Below, piece by piece: positions 17,674-56,969 of a stretch of DNA of 64,000 bases. Each line of letters begins with the position of its first letter. Position 1 is the first letter of the stretch. The translations under genes were made by a program, and so were the position numbers. The notes under the pieces are model-generated. The model searched no databases. It had not been told where the DNA came from and saw only the letters and a list, made by a program, of their open reading frames with translations. The stretch spans positions 4,864,001 to 4,928,000 of the forward strand of contig CBDFKD010000002.1 in assembly GCA_965248695.1 (NCBI GenBank), written 5' to 3'. This DNA comes from Acidobacteriota bacterium. Lineage in GTDB: Bacteria > Acidobacteriota > UBA890 > WLXD01.

Positions 17674-19149
17674 ATGAAGGCACCTGAGCAGTTCACCTCG
17701 CGGTTCGGCCTGCTGGTAGCCGCCATCGGCATGGCGGTCGGCACGGGCAATATCTGGCGCTTCCCCCGCGTCGCGGCGCTGAACGGCGGCGGCGAGTTCC
17801 TCATTCCATGGCTGTTGTTCCTGCTGCTGTGGTCGATCCCTCTGCTGATGGTCGAGTCGGCGATGGGTCGGCAGGCGCAGAAGGGGACGATCGGTGCGTT
17901 CGGCCGGCTGGTGGGACGCAACGCCACTTGGCTGGGCAGCTTCATCGGCTTCTGTTCGATGGCGATCATGTGCTACTACGCCGTGGTCGCCGGGTGGTGT
18001 TTCAAGTATCTGTACGGCGCGCTCACCGGCAGCGTGATGCGCCAGGGCGGTAGTGCGTACTGGGAGGCGTTTCAGGCATCGCCGGTCGAGGCGATCCTGT
18101 TCCAGCTCATCGCCATCGGCTGTGCCGGAGCCGTCGTGTACCGGGGTGTGGTGGCCGGCATCGAGCGCGCTTGCAAGGTGATGATCCCGCTGCTGTTCCT
18201 GCTCTTGCTCGGCGGCGCGGTCCGCGCGATGACGCTGCCCGGGGCGAGCGGTGGCCTGAACTTTCTGTTCAACCCCGACTTCAGCGCGCTGCTCGACTAC
18301 CGGATCTGGCTCGAAGGCCTGACGCAGTCGGCATGGTCGACCGGGGCGGGGTACGGCTTGCTGCTCACGTACTCCATTTACACCAGCCATCGCGACGACA
18401 TCGTGATGAACTCCCTGACCATCGGCTTCGGCAACAACGCCGCCTCGCTGCTGGCCGGAATCATGGTGATCTGTTCGGTGTTTGCACTGGCGCCCGCCGA
18501 CCCGAGCAATCCGCCCGCCGAGGAGCTGCTGCAGCTCGGAGGACCGGGCAACACGGCGTTGAGCTTCCTGTGGATCCCGGAGCTGTTTCAGCAGATGCCG
18601 TTCGGACAGGTCTCGCTGGCGCTTTTCTTCCTGGCGCTGGCGGTGGCGGCGGTGTCGTCGCTGGTGGCCATGATCGAGATGTCGTCGCGACTGTTCGTCG
18701 ATGCCGGTCTCAGCCGCAATCGAGCCGTGATCTTCGTCACCCTGGGTGGATTTCTGTTCGGTCTGCCGTCGGCACTGAGCACGGAGTTCCTGGTCAACCA
18801 GGACAACGTCTGGGGCATTGGCTTGATGGTGTCCGGCTTCCTGTTTGCCGTCGCGGTCAATCGGTATGGCGCGGCGCGTTTCCGGCGCGAGCTCATCAAG
18901 CCGGCACGGAACGACTTGCCGGTCGGCAGATGGTTCGATGTCCTGCTGCGCTGGGTAGTGCCGGCGCAGTTCCTGATCCTGATCTCCTGGTGGTTGTACC
19001 AGGCAGCGGTCAGCGAGCCGGAATGGTGGAATCCGATCTCCTCGTTCAGCCTCGGAACCTGCTTGTTGCAATGGGGGGTGGTGTTTGCGGTCTTCTGGCT
19101 GCTGAATGATCGCATCGCCGCCGCGACGTTGGATCCTGAAGAACCCTAG
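17674..19149 (+). CDS. sodium-dependent transporter, NSS (SLC6-like) family
   Basis: GMAVGTGNIWRFP, GGGEF; about 12 TM segments. Confidence 0.95.
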   Translation: MKAPEQFTSRFGLLVAAIGMAVGTGNIWRFPRVAALNGGGEFLIPWLLFLLLWSIPLLMVESAMGRQAQKGTIGAFGRLVGRNATWLGSFIGFCSMAIMCYYAVVAGWCFKYLYGALTGSVMRQGGSAYWEAFQASPVEAILFQLIAIGCAGAVVYRGVVAGIERACKVMIPLLFLLLLGGAVRAMTLPGASGGLNFLFNPDFSALLDYRIWLEGLTQSAWSTGAGYGLLLTYSIYTSHRDDIVMNSLTIGFGNNAASLLAGIMVICSVFALAPADPSNPPAEELLQLGGPGNTALSFLWIPELFQQMPFGQVSLALFFLALAVAAVSSLVAMIEMSSRLFVDAGLSRNRAVIFVTLGGFLFGLPSALSTEFLVNQDNVWGIGLMVSGFLFAVAVNRYGAARFRRELIKPARNDLPVGRWFDVLLRWVVPAQFLILISWWLYQAAVSEPEWWNPISSFSLGTCLLQWGVVFAVFWLLNDRIAAATLDPEEP

Positions 19150-19161
19150 CCGCGGAGCTCG

Positions 19162-19275
19162 ATGATGGATGCAGGCGCGATCGTCATGATGCTGTTCGTT
19201 CTGGGCTTCATCTGGGGCGGGTTCGGGCTGCTGCTGTTGCGGTCGATGCGGATCGATCGGGACCGTGGTGACTAG
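19162..19275 (+). CDS. MetS-like NSS transporter small subunit (37 aa), missing from the ORF track
   Basis: MMDAGAIVMMLFVLGFIWGGFGLLLLRSMRIDRDRGD; AIVMM...IWGG pattern, single TM, GGAG RBS, directly after the NSS gene. Confidence 0.8.
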   Translation: MMDAGAIVMMLFVLGFIWGGFGLLLLRSMRIDRDRGD

Positions 19276-19822
19276 TGGCCTGTAGCAGATGAACGTTGCC
19301 TATCGTGGTGGCGAAATGGGCTCGGATGCCAGGCGCGACGACGAGACGATGTTGGCCCATCTTCGAGGAGGAGCAACGCCGCAGACGGGCCGATTTCACC
19401 GCCATCCTACGGACAGATCGGCAGTTGCGGGCGATATCGGCGTTGCACCTCGTCGACGATGCCCAGCAGGCCGTGGTGAGAGTGTGATGGGTCTGGCAAG
19501 TGGGACTTACGGGCGAGGGCAAGGATCGACGACGAGGCGATGCTGGCGTCATCGTGCAGGAGGAGAGACGCCGTCATCGCCCGTAACTCCCACTTGCCCG
19601 AAGGGTTATGCCGCCAAGGGTGCATCTCCAGCGTTGCCGCCCCTGGATGATGCGCACAGGCATCACCAGCGGCGCGGCGCCTTGGATCTGCGCCCTTGGC
19701 GGCACAACCAGACCCATCACACTCTCACCACGGCCTGCTCACATCGCCGTCCTCGCCGCGCCTTGATCTCACCCGCAAATCCCATCTGCGATAGGCAACG
19801 TTCATCTGTTACAGGCCACTAG
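19272..19822. mobile_element. non-coding MITE-like element, outer unit (34-bp TIRs including CTAG)
   Basis: 19272-19305 and the reverse complement of 19789-19822 match 33/34; no transposase; two internal inverted hairpins. Confidence 0.85.
19465..19739. mobile_element. nested inner MITE-like unit (perfect 32-bp TIRs)
   Basis: AGCAGGCCGTGGTGAGAGTGTGATGGGTCTGG (19465-19496) is the exact reverse complement of 19708-19739; two internal hairpins separated by CCC-GAA-GGG. Confidence 0.85.
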
Positions 19823-19850
19823 GGGCCTGTAGCGTGGACTGAAGGTTTCC

Positions 19851-21152
19851 GTGAATCGCTGGAATCTCGAGCCCACGGCGAAGCTGCACGGCCGGATCGT
19901 GGTGCCCGGCGACAAGTCGATCGCCCACCGCGCCCTGATGCTGGCGGCGGTGGCGGCTGGTACGACCGAGATCGACGGGGTGCCGCGCGGTGAAGATGTA
20001 CGTTCGACGGCCGCGTGCTTGCGGCACCTCGGGATCGACGTCGACGATGCTCACCCCGACGGCGCGACGCGAGTCCGCGGAGCCGGGATCGACGGCCTCA
20101 GGGAGGCTTCGGCCGCGCTCCCGTGCGGCAACAGTGGCACCGCCATGCGGTTGCTCGCCGGGCTGGTTGCCGGCTGCTCGTTCCGTACGATCCTCGACGG
20201 CGACCGGTCGCTGCGCAGCCGACCCATGGAGCGTATCGCGGAGCCCTTGCGGGCGATGGGCGCGACCGTTACCACGCGCGATGGTGGTCGGCCACCGATC
20301 ACGGTCGCGGGAACTCAGCTGCGGGCGGTTACGTATCGGACGCCGGTGCCCTCAGCGCAAGTGAAATCGTGCGTCTTGCTTGCCGCCCTGCGCGCCGACG
20401 GTGACACCGTGGTGCACGAGGAGCGCCCGTCGCGGGATCACACCGAGCGCATGTTGGCATCGATGGGGGCGCAGATTGCCGGCGGGGCGGCGGACGGTGG
20501 CGTGACACTGCGGCCGCGGCCGCAGCTCCGGCCGCTGAGAGGCCGCGTACCAGGTGACGTTTCGTCGGCGGCGTACTGGGTTGCGGCGGCCGGCGTTGCC
20601 GATCGCGCCGAGCTGGAGCTGCCGGGTGTCGGCATCAACCCGACCCGTTCGGCGGTGCTCGACGTACTCCGCGATTGGGGTGCCGACATCGACATCGAGC
20701 CAGGGGCGGACTGGCACGGAGAACCGTGCGCGACGATTCGGGCGCGAGGCGGGGCGACGCTGCGAGGCGGAGCCATCGACGGCCGCTCAGTGACCGCTCT
20801 GATCGACGAGTTGCCGCTGCTGGCCCTCCTCGGACCGCTGACCCGCGAGGGCGTTGAGATCCGCGGCGCGGCGGAGCTAAGGGTCAAGGAGAGCGACCGC
20901 ATTGCGGCGGTGTGTGCGGCGCTACGTGCACTCGGCGTCGAGGTTGACGAGTTTCCTGACGGCCTGGCCGTGCGGGGCCGTCAGGGCCTGACCGGTGGCA
21001 GCGTCGACGCCTGTGGTGATCATCGCATCGCGCTCGCGACCGCGGCGGTATCCGGCGCGGCGAGCGGCCCCGTCCAGGTCGTTGGCGCCGACGCGGCAGC
21101 GGTGTCGTACCCGGGCTTCCGCGAGCAGCTCGAATCGGCGAGTCGGCGGTGA
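19851..21152 (+). CDS. aroA: 3-phosphoshikimate 1-carboxyvinyltransferase
   Basis: PGDKSIAHR, GNSGT, SAQVKS, RDHTE, LRVKESDR, DHRIA. Confidence 0.96.
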   Translation: MNRWNLEPTAKLHGRIVVPGDKSIAHRALMLAAVAAGTTEIDGVPRGEDVRSTAACLRHLGIDVDDAHPDGATRVRGAGIDGLREASAALPCGNSGTAMRLLAGLVAGCSFRTILDGDRSLRSRPMERIAEPLRAMGATVTTRDGGRPPITVAGTQLRAVTYRTPVPSAQVKSCVLLAALRADGDTVVHEERPSRDHTERMLASMGAQIAGGAADGGVTLRPRPQLRPLRGRVPGDVSSAAYWVAAAGVADRAELELPGVGINPTRSAVLDVLRDWGADIDIEPGADWHGEPCATIRARGGATLRGGAIDGRSVTALIDELPLLALLGPLTREGVEIRGAAELRVKESDRIAAVCAALRALGVEVDEFPDGLAVRGRQGLTGGSVDACGDHRIALATAAVSGAASGPVQVVGADAAAVSYPGFREQLESASRR

Positions 21153-54449: not shown

Positions 54450-56969
54450 ATGGACACACGAACCGATTCTGTGGCGCTACCGGCTCGCAGGATCGCCCTG
54501 GCAACGATCCTCCTCGGCTCGGTGGCTGCCGTCGCCTCGGCGCAGCAGTCGCAGCCGCCTACGGCCGAGGACGAGCTCGCGCCGGTGCGGGCGATTCATA
54601 CCACGTTGCGAGACAGGTTGGCGGCCGCCGCACCGTTGCTCGACGTCGACTTGATCATGGAAGGGGCCGACTTCAGCGGCACCACGCCGACGGGAGTTCG
54701 CTGGGACGGCCGCGGCGAGCGCCTCTGGTTCCAGTGGAAGCGCTGGGACGAGCCGGAAAGCGGAACCTGGGAGTATCGGCTGTCGGATCGATCGCTCCGC
54801 CGGCTCGATGAGGCGGCGGCCGAAGACGTGCCGGGGCGCAATTCCGTATGGGACGCGGACCGTCGCCGCGCGATGTGGGAGGTTCGCGATTCGATCCGCC
54901 TTTACGACGCCGAGTCGGGTAGCGTCCGCACGCTGCTCGATGGCATCGACGGGGCCCGTCCGGTGGCCTTTGCGCGCGGCTCCAGGAGTGGCGTCGTGCG
55001 CTGGCAGAACAATCTTCTGTCGATCGAGCTCGCCGATCCGGGCGACGCGCCGGTGGTGCGACGCCTTACGGACGTCCGCGCGGGCAAGGCCCCGGAGCAA
55101 GCGCCTCCGACAGGCAGCCAGCGCTGGTTGCGCGAGCAGCAGCTGGCGCTCTTCGATGTGCTCCATCGACGAGAGGCACGCAGCGAGCGTCGCCGCGAAC
55201 GGAGCGATCTGTTGCAGCCCGCACCCCTCTACCTGGACGGATGGCGGATCGACGCGCTGGTGCCGTCGCCGGATCTGAGCTGGGTTGCCGTGCTGCAGCG
55301 ACAGGAGGCCACGTCGGACGAGGTGGCCGACGTGCCGGACTACGTCACCACCAGCGGATACACGGAGGAGCTTCACAGTCGCATCAAGGTCGGGGATGAT
55401 CTCGGCAGTCGGCGCCTCGGGCTGCTCGAAGTAGCCACCGGAACGGTGGGTTGGGCCGAAGTGGACCTCGAGGACCGTGATCTGGCGTACAGCGGCGTCC
55501 GCTGGAGCGAGAATTCCCGCCGGGCCCTCGTCCAGGCTCGCGCCACCGACAACAAGGATCGTTGGCTGGCGGTGCTCACCCCGGCACTGACGGACGGCGC
55601 CGACAGCGGCGATTCCGCGCCCGCCAACGACCGATCGGCCGCCGAGTCTGAGCCCGCGAGCGACCGATCCGCCGACGACGGTGAGGCGGAGTCCGACAAC
55701 CGGCGGTCCGTAGTGATCGACGTCGTCCTGGCGACGCACGATCACGACGATGCGTGGATCAACTGGAGCGTTGCGGGCGCCTATGGTTGGCTGCCGGGAG
55801 ACGAGGACTTCTACTTCGTCTCGGAGCGCTCCGGGTACATGCACCTGTATCGCGCCGCGGCCTCCGGCGGCGATCCTGCGGCGCTCACCAGCGGCGAGTA
55901 CGAGGTCTTCTCTCCGCGCCTGACGCCGGCGCGCGACGCCCTGGTATTCGAGGCGTCGATACAGAGCCCGTTCGAGGTCCATGCGTATCGACTGGGGCTC
56001 GACGGCGGCGACGCGGCGCAGATCAGCGCCGGGCACGGTCGCGAGAACGTCGTGCTGAGTCGCGATGGTCGCAGCTTTGCCGCAGTGGCGTCGAGATCCA
56101 ACCGTCCTTGGGAGCTCTATGTGCACGACGGCGGCGATGCGGCCGCGGGCGAACGCGTCACCCGGTCAGCAAGCCCGGCGTTCGACTCCTACGATTGGAT
56201 CGAGCCGGAGATCGTCCATTTCGAGGCGCGCGACGGGGTCGATGTCCCGGCTCGGCTGTACCGTCCGGTCGGCGAAGCGACGAACCGGCCGGCGGTGATT
56301 TTCGTGCACGGCGCCGGCTACCTGCACAACGTCCATCGCTGGTGGTCATCGTACTCGCGCGAGTACGCCTTCCATCATCTACTGGCGGAGCGCGGCTACA
56401 CGGTGCTCGACATTGATTACCGCGGCTCGGCAGGCTACGGACGTGACTGGCGCACAGCCATCTACAGGTACATGGGAGGCAAGGATCTCGACGACCAGGT
56501 GGATGGGGCGCGTTACTTGACCCGGGAGCATGGCGTGGATCCGGAGCGCATCGGGATCTACGGAGGCTCATACGGTGGCTTCATCACCCTGATGGCGCTG
56601 TTTACCGCGGCCGAGGACTTCGCCGCCGGCGCGGCGCTGCGCCCGGTCACCGACTGGGCCCACTACAACCATCCGTATACCAGCAACATCCTCAACTTAC
56701 CGCAGTCCGACGCCGAGTCCTACTGGCGCTCGTCACCCATATACTTCGCCGAGGGGCTCGATGATCCGTTGCTGATCTGTCACGGAGTCATCGACACGAA
56801 TGTGCATTTCCAGGGGGTGGTGCGGCTGGCACAGCGGCTCATCGAGTTGCGTAAGGAGAACTGGGAGGTGGCCTTGTACCCGGTCGAGAGTCACGGGTTC
56901 GTCGAGGCGGCCTCCTGGGCCGATGAGTACCGCCGTATTCTGAAGCTCTTCGAGGACAACCTGAGGTGA
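54450..56969 (+). CDS. S9 prolyl oligopeptidase / dipeptidyl peptidase IV-like, secreted
   Basis: signal peptide, beta-propeller, GGSYGG nucleophile, D-NV, ESHGF. Confidence 0.92.
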   Translation: MDTRTDSVALPARRIALATILLGSVAAVASAQQSQPPTAEDELAPVRAIHTTLRDRLAAAAPLLDVDLIMEGADFSGTTPTGVRWDGRGERLWFQWKRWDEPESGTWEYRLSDRSLRRLDEAAAEDVPGRNSVWDADRRRAMWEVRDSIRLYDAESGSVRTLLDGIDGARPVAFARGSRSGVVRWQNNLLSIELADPGDAPVVRRLTDVRAGKAPEQAPPTGSQRWLREQQLALFDVLHRREARSERRRERSDLLQPAPLYLDGWRIDALVPSPDLSWVAVLQRQEATSDEVADVPDYVTTSGYTEELHSRIKVGDDLGSRRLGLLEVATGTVGWAEVDLEDRDLAYSGVRWSENSRRALVQARATDNKDRWLAVLTPALTDGADSGDSAPANDRSAAESEPASDRSADDGEAESDNRRSVVIDVVLATHDHDDAWINWSVAGAYGWLPGDEDFYFVSERSGYMHLYRAAASGGDPAALTSGEYEVFSPRLTPARDALVFEASIQSPFEVHAYRLGLDGGDAAQISAGHGRENVVLSRDGRSFAAVASRSNRPWELYVHDGGDAAAGERVTRSASPAFDSYDWIEPEIVHFEARDGVDVPARLYRPVGEATNRPAVIFVHGAGYLHNVHRWWSSYSREYAFHHLLAERGYTVLDIDYRGSAGYGRDWRTAIYRYMGGKDLDDQVDGARYLTREHGVDPERIGIYGGSYGGFITLMALFTAAEDFAAGAALRPVTDWAHYNHPYTSNILNLPQSDAESYWRSSPIYFAEGLDDPLLICHGVIDTNVHFQGVVRLAQRLIELRKENWEVALYPVESHGFVEAASWADEYRRILKLFEDNLR

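Follow-up and report, generated by a model that had tools for sequence, protein, structure and literature searches.

A 551-bp hairpin-rich element upstream of aroA in an Acidobacteriota genome: a probable composite of two nested miniature inverted-repeat elements, with relatives in three species

The window analysed here is a stretch of 64,000 nucleotides (nt) of the genome of an Acidobacteriota bacterium (G000, positions 4864001-4928000 of contig C2), which is 5.89 Mb in length, has a guanine plus cytosine (G+C) content of 65% and is near-complete (96.4%) in two contigs. In this study, we report the structure, the relatives and the probable origin of a 551-base pair (bp) hairpin-rich element located in the window upstream of aroA. 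The gene order at the locus consists of an SNF-family sodium symporter gene, an open reading frame (ORF) of 37 amino acids (aa), the element, aroA (from 19851) and a shikimate kinase gene, and the structured block separates the transporter operon from aroA. The coordinates of all features are provided in Table 1, where the terms outer and inner (or passenger) refer to the two transposable elements of the miniature inverted-repeat kind (MITEs) of which the block appears to be made.

Table 1. Features of the 551-bp element and its surroundings, and related composites of the same genome (window positions unless a contig is given; TIR, terminal inverted repeat).
Feature	Positions	Strand	Remarks
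Whole composite: outer-type MITE carrying inner-type MITE	19272..19822		551 bp; from sequence, repeat pairs and fold
Outer left TIR, including flanking C-TA	19272..19305	+	pairs with 19789-19822
Left TA of duplicated target	19273..19274		in CTAG 19272-19275; overlaps TAG stop (19273-19275) of the 37-aa ORF
Outer hairpin A	19306..19404		from folds of un-nested copies and alignment of 30 outer units
Outer spacer TCCTACGGA	19405..19413		mini-stem in folds
Outer hairpin B, left arm	19414..19464		stops at the loop holding the passenger
Inner (passenger) MITE	19465..19739		element proper 19466-19738
Inner left TIR	19465..19496	+	32 nt, 100% with 19708-19739
Inner hairpin 1	19492..19601		arms 19492-19516/19577-19601, 25 nt, 92%; consensus fold and covariation
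Inner hairpin 2	19604..19709		arms 19604-19630/19683-19709, 27 nt, 85%
Inner right TIR	19708..19739	-	32 nt, 100% with 19465-19496
Outer hairpin B, right arm	19740..19788
Outer right TIR	19789..19822	-	pairs with 19272-19305
Right TA of duplicated target	19820..19821		in CTAG 19819-19822
GGGCCTGTAGC stub resembling an outer-type end	19823..19833	+	direct repeat of 16 nt, 94%; equivalent stub in L001
SNF-family sodium symporter gene	17674-19149		upstream, precedes the 37-aa ORF
Conserved 37-aa ORF	19162..19275	+	after the SNF-family transporter gene; stop codon within target CTAG; also conserved in relatives
aroA (EPSP synthase)	19851..21152	+	starts 29 nt past the element
Related composite	C2:4669338-4669903		92% over 566
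Related composite	C2:733546-734109
Related composite	C2:5094743-5095307

The architecture described in the original prediction, which was made from the letters of the window, was recovered in all its parts. The outer TIRs are 34 nt long and complementary at 33/34 positions (97%), with CTAG at both ends, and the inner TIRs are perfect over 32/32 nt. Without its insert the outer unit measures 193 + 83 = 276 bp, and the inner unit 275 bp. Un-nested copies fold as an end-stem plus two hairpins divided by a short spacer, which in the inner unit is CCCGAAGGG. The core supposed to be common to the hairpins was also present, with a direct match of 83% between 19328-19356 and 19519-19547 and a complementarity of 88% between 19358-19381 and 19438-19461. 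At the junctions of the inner MITE, the TA...TA pair is replaced by a lone A at 19465 on the left side and by TC at 19739-19740 on the right side. As had been stated, no transposase is encoded inside the element, whose units are too short for one; the only long ORF (19289-19822) runs through palindromic DNA. Folded as single-stranded DNA, the 551 nt reached -209.1 kcal/mol, against -111.1 ± 4.7 kcal/mol in shuffled sequences (z = -20.9, 0/100 as good).

Both units belong to multicopy families. BLAST within G000 retrieved 26 un-nested full-length outer-type copies of 263-291 bp (all of 277-291 bp except a collapsed one of 263 bp) and 29 full-length copies of the inner type (~275 bp), of which 4 are nested. 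End probes, allowing up to three mismatches, located 123 outer-type and 131 inner-type ends, and the MITE-homologous stretches of the genome numbered 141 (0.41% of its length). When the ends were stripped, the interiors of the two types proved homologous, with identities of 69-74% over 90-157 nt and scores of 48-60 bits, where the best of 200 shuffles reached 28.3 bits. The proposal of a non-autonomous family with a conserved fold thus held, with two unrelated sets of terminal repeats surrounding homologous cores, and the un-nested outer units that it called for exist in 26 copies. Small size, TIRs, target duplication, empty sites, dispersed copies and the lack of a transposase gene, all of them traits of MITEs, were found. 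A scan of G000 for other TA-flanked inverted repeats (16 nt, up to two mismatches, 60-3500 bp apart) returned only the two end classes and the internal palindromes of the same elements. Outside the MITE stretches, the stem motif YGATG-N5-9-CATCR occurred with extended palindromy at two sites, and no additional family with this core was detected.

The elements are inserted in CTAG. Among un-nested outer copies this tetranucleotide was read at the left flank in 22/26 and at the right flank in 21/26, and in un-nested inner copies the boundaries ct-AG and CT-ag were each found in 23/25. The deviant flanks altered the outermost base alone (TTAG...CTAG three times, and GTAG...CTAG). Since the variants differ solely in that base, the duplicated piece is TA and not 4 bp, and the adjoining G and C belong to the element. 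Empty states of the site, which the original prediction had pointed to as a check, and a scarred one were present in relatives, recovered through aroA and labelled Acidobacteriota metagenome-assembled genomes. In L002, L003 and L004 the site is empty, and the TAG stop codon is followed directly by the aroA leader. In L001, the closest relative (aroA 86% identical), the same place is occupied by a stub of ~19 bp, made of the first 11 and the last 6 letters of an outer-type element. In addition, L001 and the window share a second, older end-like stub just downstream, which probably represents a scar from an earlier insertion into this CTAG. Both stubs together indicate that the CTAG of this locus has been used more than once.

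CTAG is scarce in G000, where 4,485 sites were counted and base composition alone predicts ~19,000 (by our arithmetic, about a quarter is observed). The sites are concentrated in non-coding DNA: of the 4,265 that are not part of MITEs, ~1,763 lay outside a coding mask covering 88.6% of the genome; this mask is crude, and the non-coding count varied from 1,763 to 1,290 depending on the thresholds. An initial mask based on G+C content at third codon positions (GC3 >= 0.80) covered merely 44% of the genome and was discarded in favour of looser ones. Several destroyed MITE-flank sites in G000 read CCAG or CTGG.

The nested arrangement recurs. G000 contains four composites with unrelated flanks and the insert at an identical loop position, and in a check for segmental duplication their flanks differed beyond the CTAG. 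The composite family has three members in G000, at least eight in one sister species and two in another. The junction between outer and inner sequences was found at no fewer than 10 places in G002 and at three in G003; G002 also has five loci with outer ends 546-553 nt apart, beside shorter deletion forms. In a tree of 31 inner units, the passengers of the window copy, of the composites n2 and n3, of one G003 locus and of two G002 loci formed a clade with support 100/100. The second group comprised all 24 free inner copies and the passenger of the fourth composite, n4. Given the position of the n4 passenger inside the free group, at least two separate nestings occurred at one outer loop, and one of these founded a composite family that spans three species. 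Full-length passenger interiors numbered three in G000, six in G002 and one in G003, every one at a composite locus. The passenger lineage is thus found full-length solely inside composites, and the composite would move via its outer ends. The tendency to nest that had been proposed was partly upheld: insertion into the family's own hairpin loops does recur, but the window copy was derived from an older composite and does not represent a new nesting event.

In n3, and in all eight G002 copies with an interior match of at least 100 nt, the passenger has the opposite orientation with respect to the outer unit, which is most simply explained by flipping between the perfect 32-nt ends, a second insertion being the alternative. 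The left junction with A in place of TA was present in G000, G002 and G003. In vitro, ISY100, an insertion sequence (IS) of the IS630 family, inserts into TA, and 3/39 of its products had TA on one side and A only on the other (PMC2170065), the same form as the left junction of the composites.

The location of the target accounts for the nesting. In the alignment of outer units, the hairpin-B loop reads (C/T)CCCTAG in 5/26 un-nested copies. A CTAG is also present at the tip of the matching hairpin (inner hairpin 2) in 16/18 aligned main inner-type copies, and has been lost from that tip in the window copy. By our count, 37 CTAGs lie inside MITE stretches of G000, and 27 of these are free loop-tip sites; six loop-tip CTAGs are occupied by an inner-type start or its first 11-16 nt (C2:410671, 5483170, 5483253, 5509199, 1765317 and 5094824). 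Given that the hairpin tip carries the ordinary target of the family, nesting follows from it and no special attraction to hairpins is needed; the loop of a MITE would be a harmless ready target offered to the next element. Two further ideas were rejected. CTAGs at the edges of MITEs do not appear to be hot targets, with only two back-to-back insertions found there, and the loops of un-nested outer copies (CTCACTG and similar) are not excision footprints of a passenger, as their letters misfit the footprint of a 2-nt stagger.

With regard to the enzyme, 90 transposase loci of relatives (30 DDE_3 and 60 DDE_Tnp_1/1_2) were scanned with both end motifs, and the outer end was resembled only by that of an IS630-type IS of G007. 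This IS is 1205 bp long and encodes a 363-aa transposase of the IS630 family (NF033545, 292.5 bits with a cut-off of 100). Nine copies were examined, and they were inserted in C-TA-G at 9/9 left and 8/8 readable right flanks. The end of this IS reads TAGTCTCCTGTAACAG and that of the outer MITE TAGTGGCCTGTAACAG, with agreement at 14/16 positions in 16-nt probes including the TA. The pattern TAGTG.CCTG...CAG recurs in other IS630-type ISs and in an additional MITE family (of G002, G004 and G027), and TAGTNNCCTG...CAG is common to the outer-type end and to other IS630-type ends. A search with a 24-nt hybrid probe, aimed at ISs having outer-type tips, recovered related IS630-type ends and the further MITE family, with no exact partner, and none of the 90 loci provided a partner for the inner-type end (TAGCAGGCCGTGGTG...). 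DDE_3 was found in 8 of the 26 genomes searched, G000 being counted among the 26. Within G000, end pairs lying 1.5-4.4 kb apart enclose ordinary genes and no transposase, and the repeats of 600 bp or more are of the IS3 type (three families) and of the IS256 type. Near-identical MITE pairs, seen as tree tips of length 0, point to recent movement, and the enzyme would have been lost or would act from outside.

Taken together, the TA duplication, the CTAG context and the likeness of the ends lead us to infer that the mobilising enzyme is of the IS630/Tc1-mariner-like (DDE) class, acting on TA within CTAG. IS630 itself reportedly prefers CTAG and duplicates TA, to judge by the title of a 1991 paper by Tenzen and Ohtsubo. 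It had been said that the element could not be assigned to a named family; it still has no name, but its mechanistic class can be given.

The 1205-bp IS of G007 abuts an inner-like MITE end with one TA shared between them, on the left in 6/9 copies and on the right in 2-3 (loci L082, L089, L092, L095, L097, L099, L101 and L102). The further MITE family is carried by G002 and G004, has ends TAGTGTCCTGTAACAGAGGTTCGT lying ~277 bp apart (e.g., G002:C8:1317171-1317447 and C9:498709-498985), and these ends show a closer likeness to those of IS630-type ISs in the same two genomes. Finally, contig C2 of G000 contains ~38 copies of a 1.28-kb IS3-type IS (e.g., 55528-56810), ~17 of a 1.41-kb IS256-type IS (105811-107236), ~10 of a 1.37-kb IS3-type IS (103715-105081) and ~6 of a 1.27-kb IS3-type IS (1393739-1395010).

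We consider, with a probability of about 0.8, that the 551-bp element is a composite of two non-autonomous ~275-bp MITEs of one IS630/Tc1-mariner-like superfamily, which nest via a loop-tip CTAG, and that the composite has moved as a unit. Each element, formed by a TIR of 32-34 bp around two hairpins, would insert at the TA of CTAG and duplicate this TA. In an ancestor of the genus, an inner-type element would have inserted into the loop of hairpin B in an outer-type element, through an aberrant event leaving a lone A on one side. The composite would then have moved as a unit through its outer ends, and one copy would have landed in the CTAG where the small ORF upstream of aroA has its stop codon, with the transposase either lost from G000 or acting from elsewhere.

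It must be noted that several observations weigh against this reading. In the 26 genomes that were searched by family, we found no IS with the exact outer ends, nor any with inner-like ends, and G000 has no matches for DDE_3, DDE_Tnp_1, DDE_Tnp_1_2 or Y1_Tnp. All four G000 composites, including the independent n4, are without the T of the left TA, which would not be expected if the event were aberrant and rare. By their outer parts, the four composites do not group into a single clade. In every segment, the window copy has arms nearest to those of un-nested copies, and the arm adjacent to the passenger shows 5 differences to these vs. 16 to n2; the window passenger is 97% identical to that of n2. 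A single origin would need a later exchange of arms between copies, which is itself only a possible explanation. The short-read contigs of the likely source sample end at the borders of the repeats; they do not span the locus, nor do they contradict it. Lastly, the strong compensatory change in the internal hairpins, described below, is not demanded by plain cut-and-paste transposition.

A different explanation of the nesting would be that the CTAG at the hairpin tip is a preferred landing pad, with a transposase that favours an extruded hairpin or cruciform and a passenger that is a specialist of the outer loop. Several data agree with it: the two or more independent nestings at one outer loop, the six loop-tip CTAGs holding an inner-type end or its first letters, the 0/10 free copies among full-length passengers, and the mere two back-to-back end junctions despite 182 CTAGs at MITE edges. 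Furthermore, the junction GATG-N0-3-CTAGCAGGCCG was counted 5 times in G000, 20 in G002 and 19 in G004, with backward controls giving 0-1, although these counts are inflated by the copying of existing composites. As a rough expectation, if ~130 elements had landed on the ~1,980 CTAGs left uncovered by the crude coding mask, of which 27 are loop sites, ~2 loop hits would result, and 5-9 were seen (Poisson p ~0.04 by our arithmetic). This excess is borderline and at most few-fold, sensitive to the mask thresholds given above and raised by composite copying, and it does not demonstrate a special attraction. Insertions into MITEs are harmless, and survival instead of preference may explain the surplus; in addition, the A-only left junction common to the composites favours a single origin over repeated insertions by a specialist. 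We consider a preferred landing pad unlikely, even if it is the best of the alternatives.

The same doubt applies to the broader idea of a family built to nest, displaying its own CTAG on a compensated hairpin tip to a transposase that prefers the displayed site, which we regard as an improbable extension. If it were true, it would lead to elements within elements, to composites that turn into families of their own, to half-units arrayed in tandem and to a 'hyperparasitic' passenger surviving solely within another MITE, and recombination between host and guest cores (cf. C2:3472823-3473085) would be a route by which one core comes to lie behind unrelated ends.

The fold is conserved by compensatory changes. 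From 24 aligned inner-type units of three species, a consensus of 93 pairs was obtained, consisting of the end-stem and two hairpins. Standard pairs filled 98.1% of the 2,231 cells, vs. 34-45% when the partners were slid by 1-3 columns, and 26/93 pairs had changed on both sides, vs. 1-8 when slid. The covariation score was 0.216, with a control value of at most 0.060, and 0/500 shuffles reached the observed score; as the rows are related copies, this shuffle figure overstates the support, and a large part of the signal comes from the division into two clades. Whole stem runs differ on both arms between lineages (e.g., ATTT/AACT vs. CCAA/TTGG), the GATG...CATC stem below the loop is invariant in all hairpins of all families, and four G-U pairs are fixed on one strand. 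The interior of these MITEs is thus structurally constrained, which would not be expected if MITE interiors were neutral filler, as is usually assumed. The conservation may reflect a requirement of the fold for movement, repair within the hairpin or selection of an RNA.

The last possibility can be extended to a rival of the mobile composite, namely that the elements (also) encode a structured RNA or provide a structure of which the host makes use, the three-way fold being selected and mobility being secondary. The paired cells, the two-sided changes and the covariation score, together with the stem blocks replaced on both arms, the invariant GATG...CATC stem and the fixed G-U pairs, are all in its favour, with the limit already indicated for the shuffles. 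Against it, a search of Rfam with positions 18500-20500 gave no match at E up to 1, target duplications flank the copies, and relatives have the site of the window either empty (three) or scarred (one). Moreover, repair or template switching within a hairpin can keep the arms of a palindrome alike without any RNA. We consider this explanation unlikely, and slightly less probable than the landing pad.

The comparison with REPINs made in the original prediction was not sustained. A REPIN-like doublet of repetitive extragenic palindromic (REP) sequences, moved as single strand by a REP-associated tyrosine transposase (RAYT) of the HUH type, would also consist of paired inverted hairpins in intergenic positions and at high copy number, as bacterial interspersed mosaic elements (BIMEs) do. 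However, REPINs are without target duplication or long terminal repeats, which are present here as TA duplications with CTAG flanks and TIRs of 32-34 nt. The domain Y1_Tnp (PF01797) gave no matches in G000, so that no Y1/HUH transposase gene, and hence no RAYT, was detected there by a search that was positive in 6/14 control genomes. In addition, REP sequences measure 20-40 bp (PMC3733652), roughly tenfold less than the ~275-bp units. A RAYT-mobilised doublet is accordingly very improbable. Still less credible is an assembly artefact (a fold-back or chimeric join at the locus). The short-read contigs of runs X1-X4 do stop at repeat borders and none listed spans the element, but such breaks are expected from short reads, contigs enter from unique DNA on both sides with no differences (19000-19315; 19794-20100) and cross the outer/inner junction (19410-19496), and the same composite stands at three differently flanked G000 loci and in the separate assemblies G002 and G003.

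Among known systems, the closest to the nested MITEs are IS630-family ISs and the MITEs derived from them, with which they share insertion at TA and its duplication, the CTAG preference, long TIRs, many non-coding copies and, for the outer ends, a resemblance to IS ends of related genomes. They differ in that no cognate IS was found for either family, nor any IS of the class in G000, and that the inner ends match none of the ISs examined; also, the interior is a conserved and covarying two-hairpin fold instead of a leftover IS, and the target lies in the element's own loop. Correia elements of Neisseria are small TA-flanked inverted repeats of ~100-150 bp, abundant and intergenic, which form hairpins in transcripts. 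These traits are alike, but the shorter length, the lack of an internal hairpin pair and the different lineage set them apart, and we know of no nesting family of Correia elements. In plants, Stowaway is a TA-targeting family related to Tc1/mariner. MITEs inserted in MITEs have been described there for Tourist, Stowaway, Castaway and Gaijin, some families having high self-insertion (Jiang & Wessler 2001, as cited in PMC5172404), and plant MITE multimers are described as independent insertion events (PMC5172404). Both plant and bacterial cases consist of MITEs within MITEs, but the former are eukaryotic, and here one composite became a cross-species family and the target site is at a hairpin tip.

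Plasmid and phage collections searched in distant mode gave no match for the 551 bp. Our literature search found no description of the family or of a bacterial composite of such kind, with the reservation that the supplementary sequences of PMC11602168 could contain the family; the part of that article available to us brings in Acidobacteriae for phage MITEs only. MITEs as a kind of element, and nesting as a phenomenon, were already known. What is added here is the target borne on a loop, the composite family with its captive passenger, the second and independent nesting, the collapsed and arrayed derivatives, and the covariation. As a whole, the data provide a bacterial case, with a clear genealogy across three species, of a nested pair turning into a mobile family of its own.

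Nesting has also left derivatives. The 263-bp element at C2:3472823-3473085 has outer ends and a passenger-derived interior, and matches composite positions 1-111, 256-341 and 437-551; judged by these matches, it is a composite that has collapsed through two deletions, of which one took place between the homologous host and guest cores. Two G000 elements of 363 and 367 bp, at different loci, consist of an 81-nt end-to-loop piece plus a full copy. In G004, a clean nesting of inner type in inner type (locus L226) keeps the CTAG intact at both junctions, and another locus (L225, C11:159700-162200) carries at positions 329-714 five tandem 83-bp inner-type half-units, from the end to the loop CTAG, with no matching far ends. 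This array looks like a small satellite seeded by nesting. It is plausible that nesting followed by recombination puts one core behind unrelated ends, which points to a way for MITEs to exchange cores and ends. Stubs of 20-30 bp, with only the first and last letters of an element, were also seen repeatedly in G000 (C2:248172, 783528, 1180672, 1318005, 694605 and 5756203), such as one with the left 21 nt and the last 8 nt of the inner type, and in L001 around 2950-2990; they are either excision scars or the result of palindrome collapse.

For annotation purposes, ~140 stretches in G000 and hundreds in the sister species should be regarded as hairpin-rich mobile DNA. These stretches break short-read assemblies, produce false ORFs and often sit exactly on TAG stop codons. 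A scan of positions 19000-20000 for promoter and terminator consensus sequences gave 0 and 0 sites, such a consensus being uninformative for this phylum. The 37-aa product of the ORF that ends in the target CTAG has no Pfam match. The label metS, used for the site in the original prediction, would presumably fit only as the small subunit of a MetPS-type importer. The ORF is hydrophobic and conserved in the window and in L001-L004, and may be a candidate small transporter subunit.

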